The notes: generated from the sequence alone by a model not told the origin. Shown: positions 28,464-59,319, counted from the first letter of the stretch. The stretch is DNA of 64,000 nucleotides from an uncultured Candidatus Saccharimonadales bacterium (GCA_964609585.1 CAZSRA010000001.1:220697-284696), one strand, 5' to 3'. Numbers and translations: made by a program.

Positions 28464-29453
28464 TTAAGAAGCCTGTGCGACTAACTCTTCAAAATGCTCA
28501 AAGGTTGGTGGTGTTTCTTTTAAATTATCGGTAATGCCTGTGAGCAGAATGTAATCATTTCGCGCGTTCATACCGTGTCCTGTGTAACTATTCCAGCCCA
28601 ATTCTTTGGCTTTTTCGACAACATCAATTTCGAGGTGGGGACGAATGTCTACAAACACACCTTCTTTACCAGTGTGGGCTTCGAGAATTTGGTTGATGCC
28701 CGATTCGTCGGTGGCCCCTTCCTTTCCGGCGGCATTAATGACAATGACTCCTTCGGGCAAGGTTGATCCATCGATCTCACTGAGTGACGCACGATATTCG
28801 GTCGTGGTTAATTGTGCTAGGCTCCGGGCTAGATCAGATTTATTAGTAGGGTCGATTAAAACTAATTGACTGGGGTGTTGCGCCGCAATTCTTTTAGCTA
28901 CTGGCTCCCCTACCCCACCGACACCCACAAGAACTACTGGTTTGTCTTCGAAACTCCCCACTTCATCATTGAACCAGCTAACGAATGCTGGTGCATTGAG
29001 ATCGTAGGGGGCAAGCTTTCCTTCAGCATCACGGATGAGTGTATCAACGTTTTCGGAAGAATTTTCGTCTCCTAAAAACATTGCTCGAATGGTAGGCGCA
29101 CTTTTGTGTGGCTGGGTGATGTTGACGGCAGGTACACGATCCATATTCTCTACTAGCTCAAAGAAACGTTGCAACTCCTCAGTATCGTCTTTTTCGATGT
29201 CTACAGGCACATACAGAAAGTTTGGCAGGACTTGATTCATGTACGTGCGGCTAGTGGATTTGTCCCAGCCCTCAGAGTCTTTGTGGGCGATGTATGGGCA
29301 GATTGCGAAGTTCGGATAGTTTTCGATGAACGTTTTGAATCCTTCTACCCCTTTTGCCACTGGTATTTTTTCTTGGGCGAAAGGCATTTCGGCTGAAGCT
29401 GGAAATTCAGGGGATGGTTGATTTTCGTTGGGGTTGAATGAGGGTTGTTCCAT
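28464..29453 (-). CDS. shikimate/quinate dehydrogenase-family oxidoreductase (AroE-like)
   Basis: The segment NITQPHK resembles the NVTIPHK motif, followed by a Rossmann segment VVLVGVGGVG. The gene is noticeably more AT-rich than its neighbours and lies next to the tRNA. Confidence 0.5.
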   Translation of the reverse strand: MEQPSFNPNENQPSPEFPASAEMPFAQEKIPVAKGVEGFKTFIENYPNFAICPYIAHKDSEGWDKSTSRTYMNQVLPNFLYVPVDIEKDDTEELQRFFELVENMDRVPAVNITQPHKSAPTIRAMFLGDENSSENVDTLIRDAEGKLAPYDLNAPAFVSWFNDEVGSFEDKPVVLVGVGGVGEPVAKRIAAQHPSQLVLIDPTNKSDLARSLAQLTTTEYRASLSEIDGSTLPEGVIVINAAGKEGATDESGINQILEAHTGKEGVFVDIRPHLEIDVVEKAKELGWNSYTGHGMNARNDYILLTGITDNLKETPPTFEHFEELVAQAS

Positions 29454-29648
29454 GTGCTAAGTCTAGCAGATTAGGTATATGGGTTTTTATGGTGCGCGTT
29501 CCGAACGGCAGTTCTGTTTAAAGGTTTAGGATTGTTGGATCTCTTAGCTTGTGGTCCGGATAGGATAGCCGACTGACTTTGACCAGTCGTTGATTTGAGC
29601 TGAGGTGGGCTTTGGCCTTATGATAGGAACCATAAGGGATCTAAAGCT

Positions 29649-29981
29649 ATGGCGCAAAATGTTACGTTGATCGTGTATCCGGTTTCGGATATGGAAAAAG
29701 CTAAAGAATTTTATGGCACGCTGTTGGGCGTGGAACCGTATGCCGAGAGTCCCTACTATGTTGGGTATAAGGTTGGGGACATGGAAGTGGGGCTCGACCC
29801 TAATTCCAAGGTTGGGCCGATTGCCTACGCGGATGTCACCGATATTAAACATAGCATTGAGAGTATGACCGAGGCTGGCGCTGAAGTGGTAAAAGATCCG
29901 ACCGATGTAGGCGGTGGCTTGATGATTGCTCAGCTAAAGGACGCGAGTGGCAATGTGATTGGGCTTAGACAAAAAGCTTGA
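29649..29981 (+). CDS. VOC-family protein (glyoxalase / bleomycin-resistance fold)
   Basis: About 110 aa with a beta-alpha-beta-beta-beta VOC pattern. Ends with a 4-bp overlap onto the UvrA-like gene. Confidence 0.65.
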   Translation: MAQNVTLIVYPVSDMEKAKEFYGTLLGVEPYAESPYYVGYKVGDMEVGLDPNSKVGPIAYADVTDIKHSIESMTEAGAEVVKDPTDVGGGLMIAQLKDASGNVIGLRQKA

Positions 29982-32206
29982 TGCAAGAATATATCGAAAT
30001 TCGCGGCGCTCGTGAGAACAATCTGAAGGATGTTAGTTTAAAAATCCCAAAGCGTAAAATAACTATCTTTACGGGTGTGTCTGGTTCGGGTAAGTCGAGC
30101 TTGGTGTTTGATACGATTGCAGCTGAGTCGCAGCGGCTTTTGAACGAGAATTTTAGCATGTTTGTGCGGAATTTTTTGCCGCGCATTAGTCAACCAGAAG
30201 CCGACGAAATTAAGAATTTGAGTATGGCGGTGATCGTAGACCAAAAACCGCTCGGTGGTGGTTCGCATTCGACAGTTGGGACGGTCACCGACATTGCAAC
30301 GGCGCTGCGGTTGATGTTTTCGCGCTTTGGCAAGCCGTATGTGGGCTATGCCAATATGTTTTCCTTTAACGATCCGGCGGGGATGTGCCCTAACTGTAAT
30401 GGTATTGGCCAAAAACTGGGTCTTGATATGGACGCGGCTTTTGACAGGAATAAATCGATCAACGAGGGTGGTATTAAGCTATTTGACTACCAGAATGACT
30501 GGTCACTGAAGACCCTCCAGGCTTCGAAGCTATTTGATAATGATAAGAAGCTTGGGGATTTTAGTGCCGAGGAGCTTGAGACGCTGTATCACGTGCCGCC
30601 GACGAAGGTGGACGTGGGCGGTGTGCATTTGACGCTTGAGGGTGTGGTGGATAAATTTGTGCGCAAATATATCAATAATGACCTCAAGACCAAATCCGAG
30701 CGCACGCAAAAGATCATTGGACCGCTGATTACAATGGGGCCTTGCACGTTGTGTCATGGCGGCCGGCTGACCCAGAAGGCGCTTGCTTGCAAGATTGATG
30801 GTTACAATATTGCGCAGCTTAGCGCAATGCAGGTGGATAAGTTGTTTGAGGTAGTAAAAAAGCTTGATACTGCGGAAAATCATGAGCTGGTGAAGACAGT
30901 ACTGGAGCGGCTGTCGCATTTAACCCAGATTGGCCTCGGCTACCTTACGCTCGACCGAATGACGGATACGCTTTCGGGTGGTGAGTCGCAGCGGGTCAAG
31001 ATGGTGAAGCATTTGAATGGTAGTTTGGTGGATGTGATGTATATCTTTGACGAGCCGAGCGTTGGGCTGCATCCGCGCGATGTTCATCGTCTGAACGAGC
31101 TGCTTTGTAAACTGCGCGATCAGGGTAATACGGTGATTGTGGTGGAGCACGATCCAGATGTTATTAAAGTGGCGGATCATGTGGTGGACGTAGGTCCTTT
31201 GGCTGGTGTCCGCGGGGGTGAGATCGTTTTTGAGGGTACGTACGAGCAGCTCTTGAAGGCGCCGACTTTGACGGGCGAGCATCTGAAGGACCGGACGCAA
31301 ATTAAGCATGATTTTCGCAAGGCCACGGGTAAACTCACAATTCGAGATGCCCACATTAATAATTTGCAGCATGTGACCGTGGATGTGCCGACGGGTGTGT
31401 TTACGGTTGTGACTGGAGTGTCCGGTTCGGGTAAGAGCTCGCTCATTCATCAAGTGTTTTTGAAGCAGCATCCGGATGCGATTGTGGTTGATCAGTCGGC
31501 TGTGGGCGCGTCTAGCCGGTCGAATCCGGCGACGTACATTGGCATTATGGATGAGATCCGCAAAGCATTTGCTGCGGCTAGTAAAGTGGATGCAGGGCTC
31601 TTTAGCTTTAACTCTAAAGGGGCGTGTGACAACTGTAAGGGAGCTGGGTTTTTGACCACGAACTTGGGATTTTTGGATGATGCAAAGACTCCGTGTGATG
31701 TTTGCGACGGCAAACGTTTTAAGGACGAAGTACTGACATATAAGTACCAGGGCAAGTCTATTACTGAGGTGCTTGATTTGACTATGGCGGAGGCCAACGA
31801 ATTCTTTGATTTGCCGGGGACGCGGGCGAAATTGCAAGCGTTAAATGATGTGGGTCTTGAATATCTTACGCTGGGTCAGCCGCTGAGTACGCTTTCGGGC
31901 GGCGAATGCCAGCGCATAAAACTCGCCAGTGAGTTGCATAAAAAAGGTAGCGTATACGTGCTGGATGAGCCGACGACGGGCTTGCATATTTCGGACATTG
32001 CGCGACTAAATCAGCTGATTGACCGGCTGGTGGAGGACGGTGGCACGGTGATTACGATTGAGCATAATGTGGATGTGATTGCCCGGGCAGACTGGATCAT
32101 TGATCTTGGTCCCGAGGGTGGGGACAAAGGTGGGAGGATCGTTTTTGAAGGCACTCCGGCCGACTTGATGAACCATAAAGAAGCGCTTATTGCCCAGTAT
32201 CTCTGA
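29978..32206 (+). CDS. UvrA-like ABC ATPase, class II (excinuclease ABC subunit A paralog lacking the UvrB-binding insertion)
   Basis: Two ABC modules: Walker A GVSGSGKSS (twice) and signatures LSGGESQRV / LSGGECQRI; zinc-finger Cys pairs. At 742 aa it is shorter than the roughly 940 aa of canonical UvrA. Confidence 0.8.
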   Translation: MMQEYIEIRGARENNLKDVSLKIPKRKITIFTGVSGSGKSSLVFDTIAAESQRLLNENFSMFVRNFLPRISQPEADEIKNLSMAVIVDQKPLGGGSHSTVGTVTDIATALRLMFSRFGKPYVGYANMFSFNDPAGMCPNCNGIGQKLGLDMDAAFDRNKSINEGGIKLFDYQNDWSLKTLQASKLFDNDKKLGDFSAEELETLYHVPPTKVDVGGVHLTLEGVVDKFVRKYINNDLKTKSERTQKIIGPLITMGPCTLCHGGRLTQKALACKIDGYNIAQLSAMQVDKLFEVVKKLDTAENHELVKTVLERLSHLTQIGLGYLTLDRMTDTLSGGESQRVKMVKHLNGSLVDVMYIFDEPSVGLHPRDVHRLNELLCKLRDQGNTVIVVEHDPDVIKVADHVVDVGPLAGVRGGEIVFEGTYEQLLKAPTLTGEHLKDRTQIKHDFRKATGKLTIRDAHINNLQHVTVDVPTGVFTVVTGVSGSGKSSLIHQVFLKQHPDAIVVDQSAVGASSRSNPATYIGIMDEIRKAFAAASKVDAGLFSFNSKGACDNCKGAGFLTTNLGFLDDAKTPCDVCDGKRFKDEVLTYKYQGKSITEVLDLTMAEANEFFDLPGTRAKLQALNDVGLEYLTLGQPLSTLSGGECQRIKLASELHKKGSVYVLDEPTTGLHISDIARLNQLIDRLVEDGGTVITIEHNVDVIARADWIIDLGPEGGDKGGRIVFEGTPADLMNHKEALIAQYL

Positions 32207-33044: not shown

Positions 33045-33704
33045 ATGGTAAAAATTCAACGACTTGATTTATTGGTAGCGCTCTACATTTTTTGTATTGC
33101 GGTGTCGGAGCTCATGGGAGGTAAGACGTTTCCGCTCGGGACGGTGCTTGGCTGGCATTTGAACGCGAGTGTGGCGATTTTGGTAGTGCCGCTAATGTTT
33201 ACGGCGGTGGATGTGGTAGTGGAGGTGTACGGACGGGAGCGAGCGCGGAGCTTGGTAGCGAGCGGATTGATCGTGATTTTCTTACTCCTCGTGTATGCGC
33301 TGCTGGCCACGCATTTGCCGGCCTCGACGCGGTTTAAGGCGACAGAGCCAGCCTATGACAAGATTTTTGAGACGACGGTGCGGATTGCGGCGGCGAGTTT
33401 GACAGCGTTTGCGGTATCGGGCTTTTTGGACGTGTTTGTGTTTAACCGATTGCGGACGGCCTTGAAAGGCAAAGCTTTGTGGCTGCGAAATAATGTGGCG
33501 AATTTTGTATCGCAGTTGTTTGATACGGTGGTGTTTATAAGCTTGGCGTTTTATGTGACGAGCGCATCGTTTGGGTATAATGTGAGCTTTTTGGCCGGGA
33601 TCATTGTCCCCTACTGGCTGCTCAAGTGTGGTATGTCGATTATTGAAACGCCGCTCGTGTATGCGGGCGTGGCTTGGCTGCGCGGCGAAAAGAAGGCGGC
33701 CTAA
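33045..33704 (+). CDS. YhhQ/VUT-family queuosine-precursor transporter-like membrane protein
   Basis: The segment PLMFTAVDVVVEVYG matches the conserved F..D...E.YG core of the YhhQ (DUF165) family; 6 TM helices. Confidence 0.55.
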   Translation: MVKIQRLDLLVALYIFCIAVSELMGGKTFPLGTVLGWHLNASVAILVVPLMFTAVDVVVEVYGRERARSLVASGLIVIFLLLVYALLATHLPASTRFKATEPAYDKIFETTVRIAAASLTAFAVSGFLDVFVFNRLRTALKGKALWLRNNVANFVSQLFDTVVFISLAFYVTSASFGYNVSFLAGIIVPYWLLKCGMSIIETPLVYAGVAWLRGEKKAA

Positions 33705-34393
33705 CGTTGGACCGCACGTACATTGTGGCAAATTTTGTGCAGACGCTCGACGGGAAGATTGCCGGCCCGGGACCGGAGTATTGGCCGATTGGATCGCCGG
33801 CGGATCTCGGGGCTTTGCTTGATCTAAGGGCGCAGTGCGACGTGCTTATTCACGGGCGTCAGACGGCTCTTGGTTTTGCGCATCTGGACCGGCTCAGCTC
33901 GGATGATTTTCAGGCTAGATGGACTGAATCTGGCCATGACAAGGTGTATACGTATATGGTGCTTAGTGCCCATCCGGATAAGCTATTGCTAGACCATGTT
34001 GCGCCGAAGGGCCGAGGGGTACGGGTGGTTTTGGTGACAGTAGAAGGAGCGGATGTGCCAAGTGCGTTGCCGTCGGGGCTCAGTGTGTGGCGCTGCGGAG
34101 ATGGTGAAGTTGATCTCGCGAAACTTAGAGTCATGATGTATGAACATGGTTTTAAACGATGCGCTTTGGAGGCGGGGCCAAGGCTGTTTGGGGCGTTTGT
34201 GCAGGCGAAACTCGTGGATGAATTGTTTTTGACGGTGGCGCCGAAGCTGTTTGGTACGAGTTTTGGTACGCCCACGATGATTAATGGTTTTGTGTTTAAG
34301 GCGGATGCGGTACCACAGCTTGAGCTGGTGTCGTCGAAGGTGGCGGGTGACGAACTGTTTTTGCGCTACCGATTTAAGGAGGTGACATCGTGA
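33674..34393 (+). CDS. RibD C-terminal domain / dihydrofolate-reductase-like reductase
   Basis: IVANFVQTLDGKIAG start typical of RibD_C/DHFR-like proteins. The start is uncertain (ATG 33674 or TTG about 33707). Confidence 0.55.
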   Translation: MAARRKEGGLTLDRTYIVANFVQTLDGKIAGPGPEYWPIGSPADLGALLDLRAQCDVLIHGRQTALGFAHLDRLSSDDFQARWTESGHDKVYTYMVLSAHPDKLLLDHVAPKGRGVRVVLVTVEGADVPSALPSGLSVWRCGDGEVDLAKLRVMMYEHGFKRCALEAGPRLFGAFVQAKLVDELFLTVAPKLFGTSFGTPTMINGFVFKADAVPQLELVSSKVAGDELFLRYRFKEVTS

Positions 34394-36134: not shown

Positions 36135-36479
36135 ATGATTATCGATTTGTTCCAAGACGAAACGATTCGGCTCACGATAAAAGAAATTTCGATCTTGTCG
36201 GTACTCGCTCAAGGCCCAACTAACGGCTACGCAATCGCAAAACGCTGCGCAGAAGATAGCGGGAACCTGCGCCCGATGAGCCGGGGAAGTTTGTATCCGG
36301 CGCTTGGGCGGCTCGAACTGGCGCGTCTTATCCAGAAGGTAGTGCGCACGGACGGGACGCCGAATCCAGGTAAGCCGCGGGTGGTGTATGAACTGACGCC
36401 GATTGGTCGCGTAGTGCTTGAATGGAATCTTGATTCGCTAGCCCGGCTGGTGGAGCTAGCACGGGAACGGCTGAGGTGA
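36135..36479 (+). CDS. PadR-family transcriptional regulator
   Basis: Winged-HTH signature GYAIAKR...GSLYPALGRLELARLI...YELTPIGR. Confidence 0.8.
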   Translation: MIIDLFQDETIRLTIKEISILSVLAQGPTNGYAIAKRCAEDSGNLRPMSRGSLYPALGRLELARLIQKVVRTDGTPNPGKPRVVYELTPIGRVVLEWNLDSLARLVELARERLR

Positions 36480-36496
36480 CCTGCTATAGTTGAAGC

Positions 36497-37423
36497 ATGA
36501 AACAATCCCCTATCGTCTCCATTTCGAATTTTCGCATGCAGTTTGGCAATAATGTGGTGATCGATGATCTGTCGTTTGATGTCGAGCCGGGCGAAACATT
36601 TGCATTCTTGGGCTCGAATGGTTCGGGCAAGACGACAACGATTCGCACGCTCCTTGGCATTTTTGAACCAACGGCTGGCACACTTTTGGTGAAGGGTGAA
36701 AAATATGGCCCGCATCTTAGCCCCGTGCTTGGCTACCTACCCGAAGAACGGGGGTTATATAAAAAAGAATCAGTGATGGATACCATGATCTATTTTGGTG
36801 CGCTGCGCCGAATGGATCGAGGCGCGGTGCGCAAGTGGTCGATGGATTATTTGGAGCGAGTGGGGCTTGCGGATAAGGCTCATGAATCGATTGAAAAGTT
36901 GTCGGGTGGTCAACAACAAAAGATTCAGCTGGGGGTGACGATTATGAACAACCCAGAGCTCATGATTTTGGATGAGCCCACCAAAGGGTTTGACCCGGTG
37001 AACCGGCGGCTTCTTATGGATATCGTGGAAGAGCATAGTCGGCGCGGTGCGACGGTGATTTTGGTGACACACCAAATGGAAGAGGTAGAGCGCCTGTGCG
37101 ACCGGGTAATCTTGCTCAAAGATGGTCGGCGGAGATTGTATGGGACCGTGGAAGAGATCCGGAGTGATTATGGTTCGGAAGTGATCGATCTTGAGTTTAG
37201 CGGCGAACTGCCTCATAAATCGACGCATTACCAAGTGCACAAGGCGGGTCGGCATACCGCAGAGCTATCGATGACGGCTGGAGCGACTCCAAAGCAGATC
37301 TTGGCTGAGCTTGTGGCACGCTCTGGACTTGAAATTAGCAAGTTTGAACTGCGCAGGTCATCACTCGACGATATATTCGTGGATATTTATAACGAAGATT
37401 CGAGCGCGAGAAAGGTGGCATGA
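36497..37423 (+). CDS. ABC transporter ATP-binding protein (ABC-2 exporter type)
   Basis: Walker A GSNGSGKTT, signature LSGGQQQK, Walker B ILDEPT. Confidence 0.85.
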   Translation: MKQSPIVSISNFRMQFGNNVVIDDLSFDVEPGETFAFLGSNGSGKTTTIRTLLGIFEPTAGTLLVKGEKYGPHLSPVLGYLPEERGLYKKESVMDTMIYFGALRRMDRGAVRKWSMDYLERVGLADKAHESIEKLSGGQQQKIQLGVTIMNNPELMILDEPTKGFDPVNRRLLMDIVEEHSRRGATVILVTHQMEEVERLCDRVILLKDGRRRLYGTVEEIRSDYGSEVIDLEFSGELPHKSTHYQVHKAGRHTAELSMTAGATPKQILAELVARSGLEISKFELRRSSLDDIFVDIYNEDSSARKVA

Positions 37424-38634
37424 CTATGTTGGGAACGGTATTTAATTTTGAATTCGTGCGAACGCTTAGGAAGCGAAGTTTTTGGTTGCGCACTCTAGCT
37501 ATTCCGGCCTTGATAGCGGGGGTGCTGGCGCTATCGGTATTTTCGAGCAAGGCTTCGAAACAAGCGGATGATCAGGCTAAGCAAAGTCATTTTTCAATAG
37601 TGGTTTTGGACGAATCTGGGCTCGTGAGCCCTGGGGTATTGAAGGCCGTGGAGGCTAGAACGGTCGGAAGCCGGGATATGGGTATTGCACAGGCCAAGAG
37701 TGGACAAGTAGACGCCTTTTTCTATTATCCGACGAATCCGTCGAAGCAGCCGGTGGAAGTCTACGCCAAAGATGATGGGCTTGTGAACAACGGTAAGTAT
37801 CAAGCGGTGGCGGCGCAGTTGATTCAGGCGAGCTTAGTGCAAGCTGTTGGCGGAGGTGCTCGGGCGGCGCTGCTTCAATCGGGACCAGAATTTACGGTTA
37901 CGACGTATAAAGATGGTCAGGAAACGAAGGGTTTTGGGCGAGCTGTGGTACCGGGTTTGTTTTTGGTGTTGTTCTACGCGGTAATTGTGCTGCTTGGAAA
38001 CCAAATGCTTACGAGCACCACTGAGGAAAAGGAGAACCGGGTGATCGAGATGATGCTAACGGCGGTATCGGCTCGTACGATCATTGTGGGTAAGATTTTG
38101 GCTTTGATTGCGCTGGGGGTCATCCAGATCATGGCTATTTTGGTGCCGATTTTGGTAGCTTACTTTGGATTTCGGTCGCAGCTACATATTCAGCAACTCG
38201 ATCTTAGTACGTTGAGCTTTGCGCCGATGCCGATCCTTGCGGGAGCGGCGATTTTTGTGGGTGGTTTTATGTTGTTTACGGCGCTTTTGGTCGCGATTGG
38301 TTCGGCAGTGCCGACGGCGAAAGAGGCCGGCGCATTCTTTGGCTTTACGATGATTCTGATATTTATTCCGTTTTACGCGCTGGAGCTGATTATCTCTTCG
38401 CCTGATCAATTAATCGTAAGGGTGATGTCGTTTTTCCCCTTGACGGCACCGATTACGCTAATGCTGCGTAATGCAGTCGGTAATTTGAGTGTGACCGATA
38501 CGGTGTTGGGTGTGGCGATTTTGCTGGTTTCGGGTGGTGTTCTGATGGCTCTTGCCATTCGGATTTTTCGCTTTGGATCGCTTGAATACGCTCGCAAGCT
38601 GGGGCTAAAAGAGATTTTGACACGGCGAGTCTAA
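37420..38634 (+). CDS. ABC-2 family transporter permease
   Basis: N-terminal TM helix, a large extracytoplasmic loop, then 5 TM helices; translationally coupled to the ATPase. Confidence 0.7.
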   Translation: MTMLGTVFNFEFVRTLRKRSFWLRTLAIPALIAGVLALSVFSSKASKQADDQAKQSHFSIVVLDESGLVSPGVLKAVEARTVGSRDMGIAQAKSGQVDAFFYYPTNPSKQPVEVYAKDDGLVNNGKYQAVAAQLIQASLVQAVGGGARAALLQSGPEFTVTTYKDGQETKGFGRAVVPGLFLVLFYAVIVLLGNQMLTSTTEEKENRVIEMMLTAVSARTIIVGKILALIALGVIQIMAILVPILVAYFGFRSQLHIQQLDLSTLSFAPMPILAGAAIFVGGFMLFTALLVAIGSAVPTAKEAGAFFGFTMILIFIPFYALELIISSPDQLIVRVMSFFPLTAPITLMLRNAVGNLSVTDTVLGVAILLVSGGVLMALAIRIFRFGSLEYARKLGLKEILTRRV

Positions 38635-45574: not shown

Positions 45575-46981
45575 TTAGCTGATTTCGGGCAGAATGCTTT
45601 CGGCCCAGAGCTTGACGTCGGTGAGGATGCTGAGAGCTTCGTTGCTCGCGTTTTGGCTGGCGGTTTCGAGGCTCGTGGCAAAGGTGGGCCAATCGGCCTG
45701 GAGGCGATTGGTGCGGTAGGTGTTCCAGGCGCTCTGTTCGTCTAGGCTTAGGGTTTCGGGGAAATTGCGAGCTTTGTAGCGTGTGAATAATTCCGGCAGG
45801 CGGGAGTCGGCAAAATGCGGGTTGAGGTTGGCGAGCGTTTCGGGGCTTGCGGTTCGGACTTTGCCAGCTTCGAGTTTATCTTGCTGGCCTAGGAAGCCTT
45901 CGTAGAGGCGGGCATCGACGTCGACGAATGGTTTGTAGTCGCGTGGTTTCATGACGGCTTGGAGCTTGGTGATGAGGCCGCTGGCTTGAAGGGCGGCTAA
46001 ATGCTGGGTCGCGGCGGAAGCGGTAAGGCCGATGCGCGTTTCGGCGGTGGCATCGAGGGTGACAAGCGGCGCTACAGCCGGGCAGTTGCCGAACGTAAGC
46101 TCTTTGACTGGGAAGGGTTTGAAACCGGATTTTGTGCGGTCTGCGGCTTTGGCGAAACGGAGTGCGGCGAGGTCTTCCACCGACATCTCGGCGTATTGGG
46201 CCGGGTTTTGGCGCAGGTCGTAGACGATTGCCGTGCCGTTTTGGCCTTCTGCTATCGGAAAAGCGATGGTGGTGTGGTGATGGTCTTTGGGGTAGCGACC
46301 GGAAGTATAGACGAAGGGTTTCGGATTTTTTACGTTTACGATTTTTGCGACTTCGTGTTTGCTGCGGAGGTTGAGGAGATAATGGAAGAGTTTGGGCTGA
46401 GACTTTCGCAGGTGTCTCGCGACCGCGATGAGAGCGGTGACGTCGCTGAGAGCATCGTGAGCATGGGTATGCTCGAGTTGGTTGGCGCTGGCGAGGTGTG
46501 CTAGTTTGTTTGACGGCCTCCCTTCTTCGTCTACGGGCCAGGTGAAGCCGTCGGGGCGGAGGGCGCGTGTCATGCGCATGGTGTCGAGTAGGTCCCAGCG
46601 TGAGCGGTCTTCGGACCAAGCCCATTCGTAGGGGTCGTAGAAATTGCGATAGTATAGAAAGCGGATGAATGTGTCGTCAAAACGGACACTATTGAAGCCG
46701 GTGGCGATGGTGCCGGGCGTGAAGACTTCGGTGTTTAGAATTTTCATGAGTTCGGCTTCGGTGATGCCTTCGCGGACTGTTTTTTGTGGGGTAATGCCGG
46801 TGACGAGGATGGCATAGGGGCTCGGCAGTACTTCATCGGTAAGTTTTACGAGCAGATTGACAGGCTCTCCTACTGGCTCGAGTTCGAGGGTGGTGCGCTG
46901 GCCGGCAAATTGCATGATGCGGTCGCGTTTGGGGTCGAAGCCGGAGGTTTCGAGATCGTAGAAGAAGAAGGTTTGAGGCAT
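45575..46981 (-). CDS. sbcB: exodeoxyribonuclease I (DnaQ-like 3'-5' exonuclease with SH3-like and C-terminal helical domains)
   Basis: N-terminus TFFFYDLETSGFDPKRDRIMQFAGQRT closely parallels the E. coli ExoI Exo I motif; length 468 aa. Confidence 0.75.
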   Translation of the reverse strand: MPQTFFFYDLETSGFDPKRDRIMQFAGQRTTLELEPVGEPVNLLVKLTDEVLPSPYAILVTGITPQKTVREGITEAELMKILNTEVFTPGTIATGFNSVRFDDTFIRFLYYRNFYDPYEWAWSEDRSRWDLLDTMRMTRALRPDGFTWPVDEEGRPSNKLAHLASANQLEHTHAHDALSDVTALIAVARHLRKSQPKLFHYLLNLRSKHEVAKIVNVKNPKPFVYTSGRYPKDHHHTTIAFPIAEGQNGTAIVYDLRQNPAQYAEMSVEDLAALRFAKAADRTKSGFKPFPVKELTFGNCPAVAPLVTLDATAETRIGLTASAATQHLAALQASGLITKLQAVMKPRDYKPFVDVDARLYEGFLGQQDKLEAGKVRTASPETLANLNPHFADSRLPELFTRYKARNFPETLSLDEQSAWNTYRTNRLQADWPTFATSLETASQNASNEALSILTDVKLWAESILPEIS

Positions 46982-48498: not shown

Positions 48499-50013
48499 AT
48501 GGATCAGGCATTGGCGCTCGAAATCATGCTCTCGGGCGAAAGTGTATTGCTCACCGGTCCGGCAGGTTCGGGTAAAACGTATGTGCTGGGGGAGTTTATT
48601 CGGCGAGCGAAACGTGAGGGAAAGACGGTCGCCGTGACGGCTACAACGGGTCTTGCGGCGAGTCATTTGGGCGGATCGACGATTCACGCTTGGGCGGGAA
48701 TTGGCATTGCGGATGAGCTTCCAAAGGGCTATGTAGCGAATTTGAGCAAGTCGCGGCATGACATCATAACAAAGACGGATGTGCTGATTATTGACGAGAT
48801 TTCAATGCTGCATGATTTTCGGCTTGATATGGTGAACGAGGCGGCGAAAATGGTGCGCAAAAGCAGTGAACCGTTTGGCGGGTTGCAGGTGATTTTATGC
48901 GGCGATTTCTTCCAGCTGCCGCCGGTGAACCGGAGCGATGCGCGGGCAGGCGGGTTTGTGACGGAGTCGCCGGCATGGCGGGAATTGGACCCAGTAATTT
49001 GCCAGCTGCACGAACAGCACCGGCAAGACGACGAAGATTTTTTGACGGTTTTGAATGCTTTGCGGGCGGGTGATGTGCGAAGAGCTCACGCTGAGGCACT
49101 ACTAGGCCGCATTGACGCTCCCCTATCTGGCGTCGTAACAGAGCTTCACACAACGAATGTGGATGTAGATCGTATAAATGAAGCCGCACTGGAAACGATT
49201 GTTGGTGAAGAGCACGTGTACGATATGACTACGACGGGTAAAGAAAATTATGTGGAGTCACTGAAACGCTCATGCTTGGCGCCGGAGCGGTTGGTGCTCA
49301 AGGTGGGTGCGTTGGTGATGTGTATTAAGAATGCGCAGGATCGTAAGTATGCGAATGGATCGCTTGGGGTAGTTAAGGAGTTTGACGAAGTTAGTGGCTA
49401 TCCAGTGGTGGAGCTGCGGAGTGGTCGGACACTGGAGATCCTGCCGGATATGTGGGAGCTGCGCGATGGAGACAAAAAACGAGCGTCGCTTACTCAGCTG
49501 CCATTGCGACTGGCTTGGGCTATTACGGTACATAAAAGCCAGGGCATGACCCTTGATGCTGCTCGCATTGATTTGCGAAGGGCATTTGTGCCAGGCATGG
49601 GATACGTAGCATTGAGTCGTGTGCGCAGTCTGGCGAATTTGAGTTTGGTGGGAATCAATAAGATGGCGCTGGAAGTGAGTGCTGAGGCGCTTGCTATGGA
49701 CGATGTTCTTTCTGCCAAAGCTAAGGTTGACGCTGAGCGGTTTGCCTACCTCGCTCAGCGAGCCGCAGAGCGAGCAGATAGACCCGAGACGCCGAGTAAG
49801 GATAAAAGTTGGTCGAGCAAGATCGAGATAATGCGGCAGAACTATCCGAATGCTTTTCGACCTTGGCCGGCCGCGGATGACGACAAGCTACGAGAACTGT
49901 TTGAGCAAGGAGTGGGTCTTGAGGCATTGAGTGATCAGTTTGGGCGCCATCCGGGCTCGATTCGGTCGCGATTGAAGAAACATTTTGGTGAAGACGTGGT
50001 GGTAGCGGATTGA
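48499..50013 (+). CDS. PIF1/RecD-family 5'-3' DNA helicase with C-terminal helix-turn-helix extension
   Basis: Walker A GPAGSGKTY and motif II LIIDEISM; C-terminal UvrD_C_2-like ITVHKSQGMTLD; extra C-terminal region of about 90 aa ending LSDQFGRHPGSIRSRLKKH. Confidence 0.75.
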   Translation: MDQALALEIMLSGESVLLTGPAGSGKTYVLGEFIRRAKREGKTVAVTATTGLAASHLGGSTIHAWAGIGIADELPKGYVANLSKSRHDIITKTDVLIIDEISMLHDFRLDMVNEAAKMVRKSSEPFGGLQVILCGDFFQLPPVNRSDARAGGFVTESPAWRELDPVICQLHEQHRQDDEDFLTVLNALRAGDVRRAHAEALLGRIDAPLSGVVTELHTTNVDVDRINEAALETIVGEEHVYDMTTTGKENYVESLKRSCLAPERLVLKVGALVMCIKNAQDRKYANGSLGVVKEFDEVSGYPVVELRSGRTLEILPDMWELRDGDKKRASLTQLPLRLAWAITVHKSQGMTLDAARIDLRRAFVPGMGYVALSRVRSLANLSLVGINKMALEVSAEALAMDDVLSAKAKVDAERFAYLAQRAAERADRPETPSKDKSWSSKIEIMRQNYPNAFRPWPAADDDKLRELFEQGVGLEALSDQFGRHPGSIRSRLKKHFGEDVVVAD

Positions 50014-53160: not shown

Positions 53161-54357
53161 ATGAGTTATGTGTTGTCACAAGATCAAGCGGCGGCATTGA
53201 AGCAGATTGGGGCTTGGTACCGAGCAAAATCGGCGCCATATTTGACGCTGGGTGGATATGCGGGGACGGGTAAAACGACGTTGATTGCCTATTTGCGTCA
53301 GGCTTTGGGGGATTTTGACGAAGCGGCGACGGTGGGATTTTGTGCTTATACCGGTAAAGCGACCAGGGTGTTGCAAGAGAAGCTGCGTGAACGCCGTGCG
53401 ATGCGAAAGGGTGATTCAGTGTCGACAATTCATAGTTTGATTTATACGACGGAGGAGGGTGCTGGTGGGATGCCAAAATGGGTGCGCAAAGAAACGCTGG
53501 AGCGGAGTCTGCTCATCGTAGATGAGGCGAGCATGGTGGACGAGGCAATTTGGCAAGATTTGCTTTCGTTTGGAATCCCGATTTTGGCCGTGGGCGATCA
53601 TGGTCAGTTGCCACCGGTAGGGTCGAGTTTTAATTTGATGGCGAGTCCACAGGTGCGGTTGGAGCGGATTTTTCGGCAAGAAGCGGACTCGGCGATTATT
53701 GGGGTGGCGACGCTCGCACGGGAAACGGGGGTACTGCCGGTGGGCGAATTTGGTGCGGGGGTGCGCAAGCTTGACCGTACATTGCCGGAGACGGGGTTGA
53801 TGGTGCAGGAGCAGCTGGAAAGCTGGCGGCCAGATTTACTTATTTTATGCGGATATAACGCGACGCGAGTGAAGCTTAACGGCGCGATCCGAGGGATGCG
53901 GGATATGGTCTCTGCTGAGCCGCAATCGGGTGATCAAGTGGTATGTTTGCGTAACAATCGAGGCAAGCATATTTTTAATGGAATGATTGGCAGGATTGTG
54001 CGGGTGGTGCCGGCGCTAGGCGAGGATGGCGTGACATGGTACGAGGCGGAGATTGCGCTGGAGGGTGAGGATTATACCTATTCCGGGTATATTCTGCGCG
54101 AGCAATTTGGGGCGGCTACGACGGCGCGCGATGTACCACTGGCACCGAACGGTGAGCGTGGGGATTTGTGGGATTTCGGGTACGCACTGACGGTGCATAA
54201 GGCGCAGGGGTCGCAGGCCGAGCGAGTCCTGCTGTTTGAGGAGCGGTTCGGGCGATCGAGTGATGAAGACTGGCGAAGATGGTTGTATACGGCGGTGACG
54301 CGGGCCGCGGTGGAGCTGACGATTGTGGGGCCGGACACGAGTTTGCCAAAATCGTGA
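53161..54357 (+). CDS. RecD/PIF1-like DNA helicase (AAA_30 + UvrD_C_2), short form
   Basis: Walker A GYAGTGKTT, motif II LIVDEASMV, and C-terminal LTVHKAQGSQAERV. Confidence 0.7.
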   Translation: MSYVLSQDQAAALKQIGAWYRAKSAPYLTLGGYAGTGKTTLIAYLRQALGDFDEAATVGFCAYTGKATRVLQEKLRERRAMRKGDSVSTIHSLIYTTEEGAGGMPKWVRKETLERSLLIVDEASMVDEAIWQDLLSFGIPILAVGDHGQLPPVGSSFNLMASPQVRLERIFRQEADSAIIGVATLARETGVLPVGEFGAGVRKLDRTLPETGLMVQEQLESWRPDLLILCGYNATRVKLNGAIRGMRDMVSAEPQSGDQVVCLRNNRGKHIFNGMIGRIVRVVPALGEDGVTWYEAEIALEGEDYTYSGYILREQFGAATTARDVPLAPNGERGDLWDFGYALTVHKAQGSQAERVLLFEERFGRSSDEDWRRWLYTAVTRAAVELTIVGPDTSLPKS

Positions 54358-55649: not shown

Positions 55650-56243
55650 TTATTTGTTGCCGGCGGTTTGTTTGATGTCGGTTGACGTGTCGACATTGCA
55701 GCCTGCCCAGAGGCCGCGGTTGTTATTGCGGGCGTCGGCTTCGAGGGTGCGGAACTCGTCGAGTTTGGTGAAGGGAAAGATGGTGTAGGCGAAGGCATAG
55801 CCGTCGCGGATGAGATCAGCGTTTACAAGGGTGCCGTCGGGCAAGTAGACGTAACGCAGGAGGCGATGGTATTTGTCGCGGTCGGAGTCGGCTGGGTCGG
55901 GCTCAAGGCGGACGTTTTTACCTTCGAGGAGGGATTTGGTGTGGGCGGCGGCGATTTCGCCAAAGCATTGGACGGGTTTGCGGGGGTCATGGGTTTCGGG
56001 TGTGTCGAGTCCGATGAAGCGGACGGTTTCGTTTTGGCCGGCAATTTGGACGTTGATTGTGTCGCCGTCGACGTCTCGGGTAACGTGGGCAAGTCCGGGT
56101 TGGGCAGATTGTAATGCTTGTTGAGCGGCAGGTGGGGCGAAGCGCAGAAAACTCGCAAGGGCGATAGCGATAGCTCCGAGACTGACACCGGCGACGCGCT
56201 TTCGTCGGCGGTGCTGTCGTGAGTGTGACTTCGGTGTTTCCAT
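55650..56243 (-). CDS. secreted thermonuclease (staphylococcal-nuclease/SNase fold)
   Basis: DGDTINV...RFIGLDTPE...RLLRYVY...ADLIRDGYA matches the SNase catalytic signature. N-terminal signal anchor. Start at METPKS (ATG 56243) has a GGAGG RBS; the longer ORF to 56315 lacks one. Confidence 0.7.
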   Translation of the reverse strand: METPKSHSRQHRRRKRVAGVSLGAIAIALASFLRFAPPAAQQALQSAQPGLAHVTRDVDGDTINVQIAGQNETVRFIGLDTPETHDPRKPVQCFGEIAAAHTKSLLEGKNVRLEPDPADSDRDKYHRLLRYVYLPDGTLVNADLIRDGYAFAYTIFPFTKLDEFRTLEADARNNNRGLWAGCNVDTSTDIKQTAGNK

Positions 56244-56387
56244 GTGCGAGTTATCCTCCCATACAAAAGCTGTCATTTCAACGGGAGAATAGGATTGAAT
56301 CCTGGCTGATGGCATATTATGATGGTTCGGTTACTTTAGTATGTAAAAGATTGTTTTTTAGAACAATGAGAAGGTTGGCTTACAGCG

Positions 56388-56792
56388 ATGCGAGAGTTTG
56401 GTAAGGCGATTAGCTACGAAAAACGAGCCGATATCACAAGGGCTGCTATGGTGGTGTTTAATGCTACTCCGAATCGGAAGCTGGCACGGGCGAGTGAATT
56501 TGAACTCGATGTGGCGGATGATCCGGTGGTGGTATATATCGCGGATGTGCGTTGGAAGGAAGGCCGGCTGAGGATTGCGGTAACGACCCAGGAGGCGCAA
56601 CCTTCATTTGAATGGCAGGTTGAGATTACCTCAAATGTGGACGAGACGGACTATTTCAAGCATTATTTGATTTTGGATGAGCAGGTGGTTTTGGCTCAAC
56701 GCAAGGTACTCACGCCGATCGACGAGGAGGAAGCAGCGGTAATTTTAGCGGATCTTGCAAAAGCTGAAGCGGTGCTTGACGCTAAGAAGTAG
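56388..56792 (+). CDS. hypothetical protein
   Basis: 134-aa ORF with no recognisable domain. Confidence 0.3.
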   Translation: MREFGKAISYEKRADITRAAMVVFNATPNRKLARASEFELDVADDPVVVYIADVRWKEGRLRIAVTTQEAQPSFEWQVEITSNVDETDYFKHYLILDEQVVLAQRKVLTPIDEEEAAVILADLAKAEAVLDAKK

Positions 56793-59319
56793 GATTTTCT
56801 AGCATTTTTAGGATGCGCGCAATATCGATGCCGGGTCCGAGGACAGGCTTCCAAAGATCGCCGACGGTTTTGAAGCGGGCTGGGGCGTTTTCGATGGTGA
56901 ACTGGATGGGTTTAAGGCCTGGCTTTACTTCGTCCCAATGAAGGGGCGTGGAAACGGTAGCATGGGGTCTCGGTCGCGCGCTGTAGGGCGCGGCGAGCGT
57001 TTGGCCGTGACGGTTTTGCAAGAAATCGAGGTAGATTTTGCCCTGGCGTTTGGTGGGGCTGCGTTCGACGCTTGTGAGATCTGGGGTTCTTTTGTGGACG
57101 TTCCTTGCGATGAGTTCGGCAAACATTTTGACTTGGTCATGGGTGTATTTGGCACCGGTGGGAATGTAGATATGCAGGCCGGTGGCGCCGGAGGTTTTGG
57201 GGTAGCTGGGGATATCAAGCTCGTCCAGGAACGCGTGAACGGCCTGGGCGGTTTTGACGACGGAGCTGAAGGTAGTGGCTTCGGGGTCGAGGTCAATGAC
57301 GCACCAATCGGGGTTGTCGAGATTGCCTGTGCGGGAGTTCCAGGGGTTGATGTCGATGCAGCCGAGGTTAATCATGTACAAGAGAGCGGCTTCATCTTGG
57401 CAGAGAAGGTATTCGATGTCGTGATCCTCGCCAGTTGAATGGATGGTGATGGTTTTGGCCCAACTCGGGGCGTGGCCTGCCATATCTTTTTGGTAGAAAT
57501 TTGGGCCGGCGATGCCGTCGGGGTAGCGTTTGAGGGACTCTGGGCGGTCTTTGAGGTAGGGCAGAATGAGGGGTGCCACTTCGGCGTAGTAATCGAGGAG
57601 CTGGCCTTTGGTGATGCGTTCTTTGGGCCAGTAGACTTTGCCCGTATGAGTGAGTTGGATAGTGTGGCCGTTTAGTTCTAAGGTTTTGTCTGAGCTGGTT
57701 TGTGGCGGGGTTTCGGGTTTTTGTGGTTGCATGGCTTTTCCTTTGGTTTGGGACGAGACGGATATTTCGAGGTGAACGTCGGTAGCTAGTTTATCTTCGC
57801 GTAAGCCCATAAAAATTGGGTGGCGCATGGAGCCGTCGGCGGTCCATTCGGTGAATTCTACCTCGCAGACGAGCTTGGGCGTGACCCAGTGGGCGGGTTC
57901 GTTGGTTTTGGGGGTGGGTGTAATGGGGCAATCTGAGGTAACGAGGGGTTGGAGACGGTTAAAAAGGTCTCGCAGTACTTCATCGGAAAAGCCACTGCCG
58001 GTATGGCCGGTGAAGATGAGGTTATGATCATCGTCGTATAGGCCGAGTACGAGAGCGCCGAAATATTGCCGGCTTTCGCGCGGGTCGGTATAGCCGATGA
58101 TAACGACTTCTTGGCGGAGGTGGGTTTTGATTTTGAGCCAGTCGCGACTGCGGGTGTTTGGGTGGTACAAGGAGTCTGCGCGTTTGGCCATGAGGCCTTC
58201 GAGGTTTTGTTTGCGGGCGGCTTCAAATAGTGGTACGCCTTGTGCTTTAAAGTGCTCGCTGTACTTGATGTGCGGTCCGTGCAGGAGGCCAAGGAGGCGT
58301 TTGAGCAAGAGCTTGCGGGTGCTGAGGGGAAGGTCCGTGAGATTATAGCTGTCAACGTATAAGAGGTCGAAGGCGTTGTAGATGAGCTGGCCGACTCCCG
58401 TGTGGATGTAGGCTTGGAGGTCTTGAAAGTCGGTACGGCCACGAGCATCCACTACGGTCATTTCGCCGTCGATGAGGGCAGGTACTTTGAGCGGGCTTAG
58501 ATCGGCTGCGGCGGCACTAAAGCGCTCGGTGTAGTCTTGGTTGTTGCGGGAGTGGAGGGTGACGGTGTGTGGGCTGGTTTCGGCCATGATGCGGTAGCCG
58601 TCCCATTTGACCTCAAAAAGCCAGTCGGGATTATTGAAGGGCGCTTCGGTGAGGGTGGCGAGCATGGGCTGAAACGTTGCAGGTGGCGGGGTTTTGGGGA
58701 GGCCTTTGAGGCCGAAGTTGAGCTTGGTGATGGGTTTTTCCGATGCCACTTCTTCGATGGTGCGGCCGGTGATGACGGAGCGGTTTTGTTTGGTGAGGTC
58801 TTTTGTGCTTATGAACTTGTCTTTGTGAGCTTTGATGAGGAGCCAGGCAGCTTTTTCTTCGGCATGGGCGATTTTTACGAGGGCGAATTCGCCGTTTAGT
58901 TTTTCGCCGTGGAGAATGAAAGTGAGGTGCTGGTTGTGGACGCCGGTGAGGGCGAGCTGATCATTTTCGTCGCGGTTTTCGGTGGCATAAAGGGGTTCGT
59001 AGGTGCCTTGGTCCCAAATGATGACGGGACCGGCGCCGTAATTGCCTTCGGGGATGAGGCCTTCAAAATACTGGTAGTCGAGGGGATGATCTTCGGTCAT
59101 GACGGCGAGGTGTTTGTCTTTGGGGTTGAGACTGGGTCCTTTTGGTATGGCCCAGCTTTTCATAACACCCCCCATTTCCAGGCGAAAATCGTAATGGAGG
59201 GCGGTGGCGTCGTGTTTTTGGACGACAAACCGTAATTGATCGCTCCCCTCTCCGCCGGCGGGTTCGGGGGTGCGGGCGAAATCGCGTTTGGCGTGGTAGT
59301 CGTGGAGAAGGCGGGGCAT
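56782..59319 (-). CDS. ligD: multidomain ATP-dependent DNA ligase D (phosphoesterase - ligase - polymerase/primase)
   Basis: N-terminal PE domain (RFVVQKHDATALHYDFRLE), adenylation motif I (FEVKWDGYR), and a C-terminal LigD polymerase domain; 845 aa. Confidence 0.85.
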   Translation of the reverse strand: MPRLLHDYHAKRDFARTPEPAGGEGSDQLRFVVQKHDATALHYDFRLEMGGVMKSWAIPKGPSLNPKDKHLAVMTEDHPLDYQYFEGLIPEGNYGAGPVIIWDQGTYEPLYATENRDENDQLALTGVHNQHLTFILHGEKLNGEFALVKIAHAEEKAAWLLIKAHKDKFISTKDLTKQNRSVITGRTIEEVASEKPITKLNFGLKGLPKTPPPATFQPMLATLTEAPFNNPDWLFEVKWDGYRIMAETSPHTVTLHSRNNQDYTERFSAAAADLSPLKVPALIDGEMTVVDARGRTDFQDLQAYIHTGVGQLIYNAFDLLYVDSYNLTDLPLSTRKLLLKRLLGLLHGPHIKYSEHFKAQGVPLFEAARKQNLEGLMAKRADSLYHPNTRSRDWLKIKTHLRQEVVIIGYTDPRESRQYFGALVLGLYDDDHNLIFTGHTGSGFSDEVLRDLFNRLQPLVTSDCPITPTPKTNEPAHWVTPKLVCEVEFTEWTADGSMRHPIFMGLREDKLATDVHLEISVSSQTKGKAMQPQKPETPPQTSSDKTLELNGHTIQLTHTGKVYWPKERITKGQLLDYYAEVAPLILPYLKDRPESLKRYPDGIAGPNFYQKDMAGHAPSWAKTITIHSTGEDHDIEYLLCQDEAALLYMINLGCIDINPWNSRTGNLDNPDWCVIDLDPEATTFSSVVKTAQAVHAFLDELDIPSYPKTSGATGLHIYIPTGAKYTHDQVKMFAELIARNVHKRTPDLTSVERSPTKRQGKIYLDFLQNRHGQTLAAPYSARPRPHATVSTPLHWDEVKPGLKPIQFTIENAPARFKTVGDLWKPVLGPGIDIARILKMLENPTS

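Follow-up and report, generated by a model that had tools for sequence, protein, structure and literature searches.

Do two overlapping genes in a Saccharimonadales genome, one for a small protein of the VOC (glyoxalase/bleomycin-resistance) fold and one for a UvrA-like ATPase, form a module that protects the chromosome against DNA-binding toxins, and if so, against whose? The genes are at positions 29649-32206 of a 64 000 nt stretch of DNA from an uncultured Candidatus Saccharimonadales bacterium (GCA_964609585.1, CAZSRA010000001.1:220697-284696), and this whole stretch is referred to here as the window. An earlier reading made from the sequence alone (the sequence-only reading) had proposed that they are a candidate pair for resistance to DNA-damaging antibiotics. 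The explanation favoured here, with somewhat better than even confidence and on the basis of sequence comparisons, is that the two-gene operon protects the chromosome of a non-producer against a DNA-binding small-molecule toxin made by other organisms.

A class IIa UvrA-like ATPase coupled to a VOC gene

Each of the two proteins has thousands of close homologues, and the open reading frames (ORFs) are therefore real genes rather than chance ORFs. In the ORF list and translations, the VOC gene is a 110 aa ORF at 29649-29981 (+) and the UvrA-like gene is a 742-codon ORF at 29978-32206 (+). At the junction (...gcTTGATGcaa), the VOC stop codon, TGA, occupies 29979-29981 and two start codons are available for the second gene. 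Starting from the TTG at 29978, there are 742 codons and a 4 nt overlap (TTGA) with the VOC gene, and this is the arrangement described in the sequence-only reading. Starting from the in-frame ATG at 29981, the protein is 741 aa and the overlap is 1 nt (TGATG). The ATG is the likelier start, as orthologues are 741-746 aa long and the databases contain an identical protein of 741 aa. Hence, the overlap stands, while its size of 4 nt and the protein length of 742 aa hold only for the TTG start. With either start, the start and stop codons overlap and the two genes are tightly coupled in translation.

Class IIa UvrA proteins are defined as lacking the UvrB-binding domain and zinc module 1 (PMC9328131, PMC10192343). 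Judged by its sequence, the UvrA-like protein belongs to this class, with every feature of the class that a sequence can reveal. The NCBIfam UvrA models match in two blocks, query residues 1-120 to UvrA 1-120 and 125-741 to UvrA 268-937, and the same gap is seen in alignments to the Thermotoga maritima and Bacillus stearothermophilus UvrA structures, where query residues 124/125 onwards correspond to UvrA 264/268 onwards. As both sets of alignments skip UvrA residues ~120-265, the UvrB-binding domain of ~145 residues is missing, as had been anticipated, and a Pfam scan of the protein found no match to PF17760 (UvrA interaction domain, UvrA_inter) or UvrA_DNA-bind. Without this domain, the protein is predicted to be unable to load UvrB.

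The remainder of the architecture is intact. Walker A, signature and Walker B motifs are present in both halves (Table 1) and, together with the H-loop EH at residues 388 and 693, make up two complete ATP-binding cassette (ABC) nucleotide-binding domains (NBDs). The protein has exactly four CxxC pairs, all of which belong to zinc modules 2 and 3; there is no zinc module 1. The cysteines of zinc module 2 align with C196/C199 ... C316/C319 of Ecm16 (PDB chain numbering), and zinc module 3 aligns with the Ecm16 segment GACPTCKGAG ... CEDCGGKRF. Absence of the insertion domain had also been expected, but this domain is present (residues 141-252, ~112 aa), enclosed by zinc module 2, and is collinear with that of Ecm16. 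It is 28 % identical to the Ecm16 insertion domain and is the least conserved portion among the orthologues, whose N-terminal 120 residues are 81-96 % identical.

The best match in the PDB is to Ecm16 (7sh1; 786 bits, E = 3.6e-235), compared to 597-608 bits for canonical UvrA proteins and 512 bits for Deinococcus radiodurans UvrA2. Overall identity to Ecm16 is 50.5 %; the Ecm16 sequence used for identity figures was transcribed from the PDB alignment. The class II assignment of the sequence-only reading is thus upheld. However, the public name of the protein is 'excinuclease ABC subunit UvrA', because it passes the cut-off of NCBIfam TIGR00630 (765 versus 729.8) despite the missing UvrB-binding domain. 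It fails that of PRK00349 (768 versus 1147). As the TIGR00630 cut-off admits them, class IIa paralogues are routinely labelled as canonical UvrA, and this is a systematic annotation error.

The VOC protein

The first gene product matches Pfam Glyoxalase (PF00903; 39.5 bits versus a cut-off of 20.6, E = 8.8e-10). An AlphaFold2 model has two beta-alpha-beta-beta-beta modules (mean predicted local distance difference test score, pLDDT, 73.5; predicted template modelling score 0.56), and this confirms the fold that had been assigned. In a 45-sequence alignment of the family, 27 positions are invariant, and aromatic residues (Y31, Y36, Y37, Y40, Y60 and F21) account for many of these. No His or Cys is invariant in this alignment and no His is near-invariant. 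The sole residue at what we take to be a canonical metal-ligand position, based on predicted secondary structure and the GloA ligands, is E46. The score against the glyoxalase I equivalog, TIGR00068, was 21.5, below the cut-off of 120. As the family has no conserved histidine, the protein is probably a VOC-fold ligand binder without a canonical metal centre rather than a metalloenzyme, though it may have an enzymatic role.

A Foldseek search of the PDB with the model returned 127 matches at E ≤ 1e-3, and all of the matches listed have the VOC fold (template modelling score, TM, ~0.6). The neighbours include TnmS1, TnmS3 (with tiancimycin), TioX, Tn5 Ble and EhpR, and a partner of the antibiotic-binder type, as had been suggested, is consistent with this set. 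The top PDB matches by sequence are the TnmS3 entries 5ump, 5umx and 5w27, at E = 5e-4. Sub-typing of the protein from structure was attempted and set aside, as the model is moderately confident and Foldseek does not separate binders from enzymes. Among VOC proteins encoded next to orthologues of the ATPase, the one in a Limnocylindria genome (type b) matches 4g6x with E = 5e-37, and 5umq (TnmS1) and the related 5umw, 5uhj and 6cky with E = 1e-11 to 1e-15.

Orthologues and their neighbours

More than 560 species genomes contain a match to the UvrA-like protein. Homologues that are 82-86 % identical are found in metagenome-assembled genomes (MAGs) of Ktedonobacteria and Limnocylindria, and the nearest named relatives are Ktedonobacteria. 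Those that are 72-82 % identical are from Saccharibacteria, including near-complete genomes of 1.16 Mb (JAUCSD010000001.1, locus L013) and 1.32 Mb (CP064960.1, L020), and those that are 66-68 % identical are from Anaerolineae, Paenibacillus, Brevibacillus and Laceyella. The Saccharibacteria copies (L009-L020) are closer to the Ktedonobacteria-type protein than are the copies from Anaerolineae, which are in the same phylum as the nearest relatives. The Saccharibacteria copies suggest horizontal transfer and strong selection in reduced genomes.

Homologues were also found in MAGs of very distant groups, namely L056 (labelled Bathyarchaeia), L008 (Ignavibacteria), L066 (Bacteroidetes) and P0113 (Verrucomicrobiae). 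The family of the 110 aa VOC protein is likewise widespread, with homologues that are 65-75 % identical, including in MAGs labelled Halobacteriota (P0174, P0200 and P0208). These very distant records represent either wide horizontal transfer or mis-binned contigs. A copy of the UvrA-like gene on a plasmid of the cultured archaeon Haladaptatus (L102, 53.6 % identity) argues that some of the transfer is real.

To survey the neighbourhoods, ORFs were called in 81 distinct loci and grouped using iterated hidden Markov models (HMMs), representatives were checked with Pfam and the loci were ordered by neighbour-joining. However, the neighbour HMMs were seeded from genes near to the UvrA-like gene and hence are biased, and the census was redone with Pfam on nearby and distant ORFs. 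Among 134 ORFs no more than 400 nt from the gene, there were 16 AHSA1, 5 Glyoxalase, 5 DUF1801, 5 ArsR and 4 MarR matches. In 150 random ORFs at least 3 kb away, there were 2 Glyoxalase matches, and AHSA1, DUF1801, ArsR and MarR were not among the top 25 families. The enrichment of AHSA1 near UvrA-like genes is robust. Over all 81 loci, the VOC enrichment (5 versus 2) is modest, and it is convincing only in the subclade sharing at least 71 % identity and by the diversity of the VOC subfamilies.

This subclade consists of 23 loci, including four that were added separately. In 8 of the 23, a same-strand VOC gene precedes the UvrA-like gene at a distance of no more than 100 nt, and in 12 there is one within ~1.1 kb. 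The adjoining VOC proteins fall into at least five subfamilies that are 20-34 % identical to one another. VOC genes directly next to orthologues or homologues of the ATPase come from Chloroflexota, Saccharibacteria and an Agrobacterium conjugative plasmid. The VOC pairing has thus arisen repeatedly, and this is stronger evidence of a functional link than vertical conservation would be. At the locus of the closest relative (L094, 85 % identity), the order is MarR, a VOC gene and the UvrA-like gene, with a VOC of type c and not the type a found in the window.

In the neighbour-joining order, the neighbour pattern tracks clades. The Ktedonobacteria, Limnocylindria and Saccharibacteria loci have a VOC gene, often with a divergent marR gene, and those of Anaerolineae have DUF1801, MFS, RibD_C and MarR genes and occasionally VOC. 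In the Paenibacillaceae (Paenibacillus, Brevibacillus and Cohnella; ~25 loci between L024 and L079), ArsR and AHSA1/SRPBCC genes are directly upstream on the same strand. In one Saccharimonadia locus (L016), ArsR, SRPBCC, VOC and UvrA-like genes are consecutive.

The flanks in the window are not syntenic with those in L004 or L005, which have the VOC and UvrA-like genes alone in common with it. Synteny is therefore uninformative about ancestry, and the pair is found in differing contexts. Composition is uninformative about recent transfer, as the GC content (0.49-0.50) and third-position GC content (0.52-0.57) of the pair are within the range of the neighbouring genes.

Some orthologues have surroundings that resemble conflict or defence loci. 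In Ktedonobacteria bacterium brp13 (L001, AP024096.1), the gene is between DUF5691 and MoxR AAA_5 genes on one side and DUF5682 and VWA genes on the other, with a group II intron reverse transcriptase gene next to it. The L091 copy is between genes for an MmeI-type methyltransferase and a PLD-SNF2 helicase, and the copy in L021 follows the gene for a SLATT_1 protein.

Carriage on plasmids

UvrA-like genes of this group are also found on plasmids. The 15 kb conjugative plasmid pTHAF40_e of Roseivivax (L096, 1919-5291) carries an overlapping operon of a DHFR-family gene, a tetR gene and the UvrA-like gene. As the other annotated genes are mostly for replication, partition, transfer and a recombinase, this operon is apparently cargo. 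On an Agrobacterium conjugative plasmid (L100, 54066-58017), a divergent tetR gene is followed by hydrolase, VOC, UvrA-like and DUF1428 genes. A plasmid of Staphylococcus xylosus has a divergent YafY gene ahead of the UvrA-like gene, close to transposase genes, mphC, msrA and an MFS gene. In a Clostridium plasmid record the UvrA-like gene is followed by marR, and on a Deinococcus plasmid the copy is between insertion sequences. In their plasmid carriage, these genes behave like selectable accessory or resistance genes and unlike core repair genes. RibD_C/DHFR-family genes recur near the Anaerolineae orthologues as well as on the Roseivivax plasmid.

Proposed function and alternatives

Pfam scans covered ~50 of the 59 ORFs in the window, and among these no uvrB or uvrC gene, as had been noted previously, and no polyketide synthase (PKS), nonribosomal peptide synthetase (NRPS) or tailoring gene was found. 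The surroundings of the pair within the window are thus not those of a biosynthetic cluster. The sequence-only reading had looked to self-resistance as the precedent for this gene; as a role here, it is made improbable by this result, and the pair is taken to be an orphan or intrinsic module. The broader proposal of a resistance pair fares better, as the domain architecture, the homology to Ecm16 and the recurrence of VOC neighbours all support it. From these we infer binding of DNA and drug, the class of drug, cooperation of the two proteins and a resistance phenotype.

The toxin would probably be planar or intercalating. The ATPase may form a dimer that binds duplex DNA via the insertion domain, as in Ecm16 and DrrC, and would scan the DNA, recognise the distortion caused by the drug and use ATP hydrolysis to clear drug that is bound non-covalently. 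As the UvrB-binding domain is missing, clearance would be independent of UvrB and UvrC. Ecm16 binds echinomycin-DNA more tightly than free DNA and drug-bound DNA stimulates its ATPase; its protective effect requires ATP hydrolysis, but not UvrA, UvrB, UvrC or UvrD (PMC9328131, PMC10192343). The VOC protein could serve as a stoichiometric binder of free or released drug, as do BlmA, TioX and TnmS proteins.

Several observations weigh against this proposal. Identity of 66-86 % across phyla is unusually high for a drug-specific resistance gene and could reflect a more general DNA-related role, and the published view is that what class IIa UvrA proteins do in non-producers is unclear (PMC9328131). 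At 28 % identity, the insertion domain, which determines drug specificity in Ecm16 (PMC10192343), is too divergent from its Ecm16 counterpart for a substrate to be assigned. The similarity of the VOC protein to proven binders is weak, both in sequence (E = 5e-4) and in structure (TM ~0.6, from a model with a pLDDT of 73.5), and FosA/FosB enzymes and uncharacterised VOC proteins score like the binders in Foldseek. The Paenibacillaceae pattern may represent a single event and neighbour counts are not phylogenetically independent. Finally, 5 of 10 close relatives of the UvrA-like protein have no VOC gene beside them, and no UvrA-like neighbour was found for the window VOC family in 4 of 4 long contigs examined. 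The pairing is therefore facultative, and an obligate pair is ruled out by these contigs.

The high conservation, in the N-terminal 120 residues as well as overall, is what would be expected if the ATPase were a general accessory DNA-damage sensor like the UvrA2 proteins of D. radiodurans and Pseudomonas putida, with a role in tolerance of endogenous, ultraviolet (UV) or oxidative damage or in mutagenesis and with the VOC gene an incidental neighbour. Minor roles in UV tolerance or mutagenesis are known for class IIa UvrA proteins of Deinococcus, Xanthomonas and Pseudomonas (PMC9328131), the gene has housekeeping surroundings both in the window and in Listeria, and the VOC family is mostly found alone. 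However, the match to D. radiodurans UvrA2 is far weaker than that to Ecm16, what recurs beside the gene is not repair genes but genes for ligand binders and for repressors of the MarR, ArsR or TetR type, and the gene is carried as plasmid cargo in the company of resistance genes. A LexA-box-like palindrome, GAACGGCAGTTC, unique in the window, is upstream of the operon, but such a box is not conserved ahead of the orthologues. We consider this explanation, the main alternative, unlikely, though less so than the others considered below. The VOC protein would then be an unrelated or loosely related detoxification enzyme, acting for example on reactive electrophiles, but it lacks the His ligands of glyoxalase-type enzymes.

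Self-resistance in a producer would require that a cluster for a DNA-targeting natural product is located elsewhere in the genome of the host. The nearest named relatives of the UvrA-like protein belong to the Ktedonobacteria, which are rich in biosynthetic clusters, and would suit this explanation. The proven class IIa UvrA resistance proteins do come from producers (PMC10413001, PMC10192343). However, orthologues that are 72-82 % identical are present in Saccharibacteria with genomes of ~1-1.3 Mb and in many non-cluster contexts, and the flanking genes are not syntenic between relatives. Together with the lack of PKS, NRPS and tailoring genes among the scanned ORFs of the window, this makes a producer improbable.

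A part in anti-phage or anti-mobile-element defence, as a DNA-scanning ATPase like mad3 or mad8 of MADS, is very improbable: PADLOC profiles do match the protein (mad3, 247 bits, residues 9-420; mad8, 103 bits), but with scores so far below those for UvrA and Ecm16 that they point to shared ancestry only, and the defence-like neighbours in L091, L021 (SLATT) and L001 (MoxR-VWA) are sporadic, whereas ligand-binder and regulator neighbours recur. MADS detection requires mad6, mad7 and mad8 in one operon, with methyltransferase components alongside (bioRxiv 10.1101/2023.03.30.534895). This operon is absent, the neighbours being the VOC gene, a dehydrogenase-like gene and DUF2127, none of the neighbours of the UvrA-like gene was matched in a PADLOC scan, and membership of MADS or another defence system was rejected on this basis. 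From the mad3 and mad8 profile matches, MADS components appear to be UvrA-related ATPases.

Protection of a non-producer from the toxins of others is therefore the function we retain. A more tentative extension, less probable than not, is that the locus is one form of a modular orphan cassette, in which the ATPase is the engine that strips the toxin from DNA, a swappable binder captures it and sets specificity, and a MarR, ArsR or TetR sensor controls expression; the swappable partners might then include several VOC subfamilies, SRPBCC/AHSA1, DUF1801 and DHFR-family proteins. Saccharibacteria live as epibionts on hosts such as actinomycetes. If the cassette is real, its retention in Saccharibacteria genomes of ~1 Mb would reflect exposure to DNA-targeting metabolites.

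Genome mining for DNA intercalators in producers already relies on UvrA-like genes as markers. Proteins of this kind are also common in non-producers, where plasmids and reduced genomes carry them, and they are repeatedly found with small ligand-binding proteins and drug-type repressors. If the proposed function is correct, resistance to DNA-binding antitumour antibiotics would have a widespread reservoir in the environment in these genes, and the pair would provide a tractable two-protein system in which to study UvrA-type recognition of non-covalent DNA adducts.

Upstream region and surrounding genes

The positions of the features identified in the operon and ahead of it are listed in Table 1. 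The operon is separated from a divergent dehydrogenase-like gene (28464-29453, minus strand) by a 195 nt intergenic region. The only exact match to GAAC-N4-GTTC in the window, GAACGGCAGTTC, is in this region (0.88 expected). Upstream of the 81 orthologues, the motif is not enriched (1 exact match versus 1.1 expected), and the role of GAACGGCAGTTC is therefore unproven. SOS regulation of the operon through this site was dropped as an explanation for the same reason, and the site could equally serve the divergent gene.

The inverted repeat at 29570-29589 could be an operator or a weak hairpin. The count of terminator-like sites such as this one is not above the shuffled expectation, and a search of the intergenic regions with a repeat finder found no inverted-repeat operators. 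The sigma-70-like site at 29595-29624 ends 25 nt before the VOC start codon; such sites are also not above the shuffled expectation in number and this one is thus a candidate only.

Table 1. Features of the VOC-UvrA-like operon and the region upstream, with positions in the window
Feature	Position	Strand	Basis or remark
GAACGGCAGTTC palindrome, GAAC-N4-GTTC, LexA/Cheo-box type (Gram-positive/Chloroflexi)	29503-29514	none	Possible regulatory site
Inverted repeat, CGACTG-N8-CAGTCG	29570-29589	+	Directly 5' of the promoter-like site; terminator-like in scan
Sigma-70-like promoter candidate, TTGAGC, 18 nt spacer, TATGAT	29595-29624	+	9/12 positions match
VOC (glyoxalase/bleomycin-resistance fold) protein, 110 aa, one two-module VOC domain	29649-29981	+	PF00903
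Class IIa UvrA-like ABC ATPase (by sequence), 741 aa	29981-32206	+	Ecm16 is best PDB match; NCBIfam UvrA models in two blocks
Walker A, NBD I, GVSGSGKS, residues 32-39	30074-30097	+	Motif scan
Junction, residues ~120-125, site of absent UvrB-binding domain and zinc module 1	30338-30355	+	Alignment
Zinc module 2, C136, C139 ... C255, C258, enclosing insertion domain	30386-30754	+	CxxC scan; Ecm16 alignment
ABC signature I, LSGGE (residue 331), and Walker B I, YIFDEP (residue 354)	30971-31057	+	Motif scan
Walker A, NBD II, GVSGSGKS, residues 479-486	31415-31438	+	Motif scan
Zinc module 3, C549, C552, C572, C575	31625-31705	+	CxxC scan; Ecm16 alignment
ABC signature II, LSGGE (residue 638), and Walker B II, YVLDEP (residue 659)	31892-31972	+	Motif scan

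To the left of the operon are genes for GluRS, MreB, a sortase, a PEGA protein and an O-antigen-ligase-like protein, and polysaccharide-synthesis genes. The right flank begins with DUF2127, a queuosine-precursor transporter, RibD_C and a folate-type glutamate-ligase operon, and continues with PadR and its DrrA-like ABC-2 exporter, MetK, exonuclease I, helicases and Ku-LigD. The RibD_C/DHFR-family gene (33674-34393) is 1.5 kb downstream of the UvrA-like gene. The exporter operon (36135-38634; PadR, a DrrA-like ABC ATPase with a DrrA1-3_C domain, and an ABC-2 permease) is 3.9 kb downstream of it. This operon recalls DrrAB, the efflux partners of DrrC, though the transporter family is very common. 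In L015, a VOC gene of the window type likewise adjoins a DrrA-like gene.

The right-hand third of the window includes genes for exonuclease I, a Pif1-like helicase, a RecD/UvrD_C-like helicase and an SNase-like nuclease (45575-46981, 48499-50013, 53161-54357 and 55650-56315), and a non-homologous end joining operon (56782-60089, minus strand) encoding Ku and a full-length LigD with phosphoesterase, ligase and primase-polymerase domains. The window is 53 % GC, and GC skew is +0.15 to +0.30 in every 2 kb bin. As the skew never changes sign, the whole window is on one replichore, with unusually strong strand asymmetry.

Comparison with known systems

The closest relative of the ATPase with a solved structure is Ecm16, the echinomycin resistance protein of Streptomyces lasalocidi (PDB 7SH1), with which it is collinear over the full length. 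They differ in that Ecm16 is encoded in a biosynthetic cluster, whereas the window gene is outside any cluster in the window, and in that Ecm16 has an N-terminal extension (it is aligned from PDB chain residue 41) that is absent here. A further difference is that the window ATPase is co-translated with a VOC protein. Like canonical class I UvrA (~40 % identity), the window protein is built from tandem ABC domains with zinc modules 2 and 3, but the UvrB-binding domain and zinc module 1 (residues ~120-265) of the canonical proteins are both missing. D. radiodurans UvrA2 (PDB 2VF7/2VF8) is also class II, but is a weaker match (512 bits) and is longer (842 aa in the crystallised chain).

A tblastn search of plasmids found that the UvrA-like protein is 54 % identical over 99 % of its length to the product of a gene on the Streptomyces globisporus plasmid SGLP1, adjoining the chromoprotein gene of the C-1027 enediyne cluster. 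The SGLP1 record labels this product simply as an ATP-binding cassette protein. The gene is presumably sgcB2, a name used in PMC10413001. SgcB2-type proteins, DrrC, MtrX and TioU are of the same class of UvrB-independent UvrA-like resistance proteins (PMC10413001), but their genes are part of producer clusters, while the window gene has housekeeping genes around it.

The VOC protein shares its fold, small size and lack of conserved metal-binding histidines with TnmS1-3, TioX, BlmA/Tn5 Ble, the mitomycin-binding protein MRD and EhpR. However, identity to these antibiotic-sequestering proteins is only 15-28 % and, unlike them, the window VOC family is widespread and usually apart from UvrA-like genes. 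The combination also has a precedent, as the thiocoraline cluster encodes TioX, a VOC-type binder reported to capture thiocoraline in a BlmA-like way, together with the UvrA-like TioU and an ABC exporter (PMC4052310). Both types of partner, and their combination, are thus already known from producer clusters, and what is found here goes modestly beyond the published accounts searched in the breadth and conservation of the orphan lineage, which includes Chloroflexota and Saccharibacteria, and in the swapping of partners.

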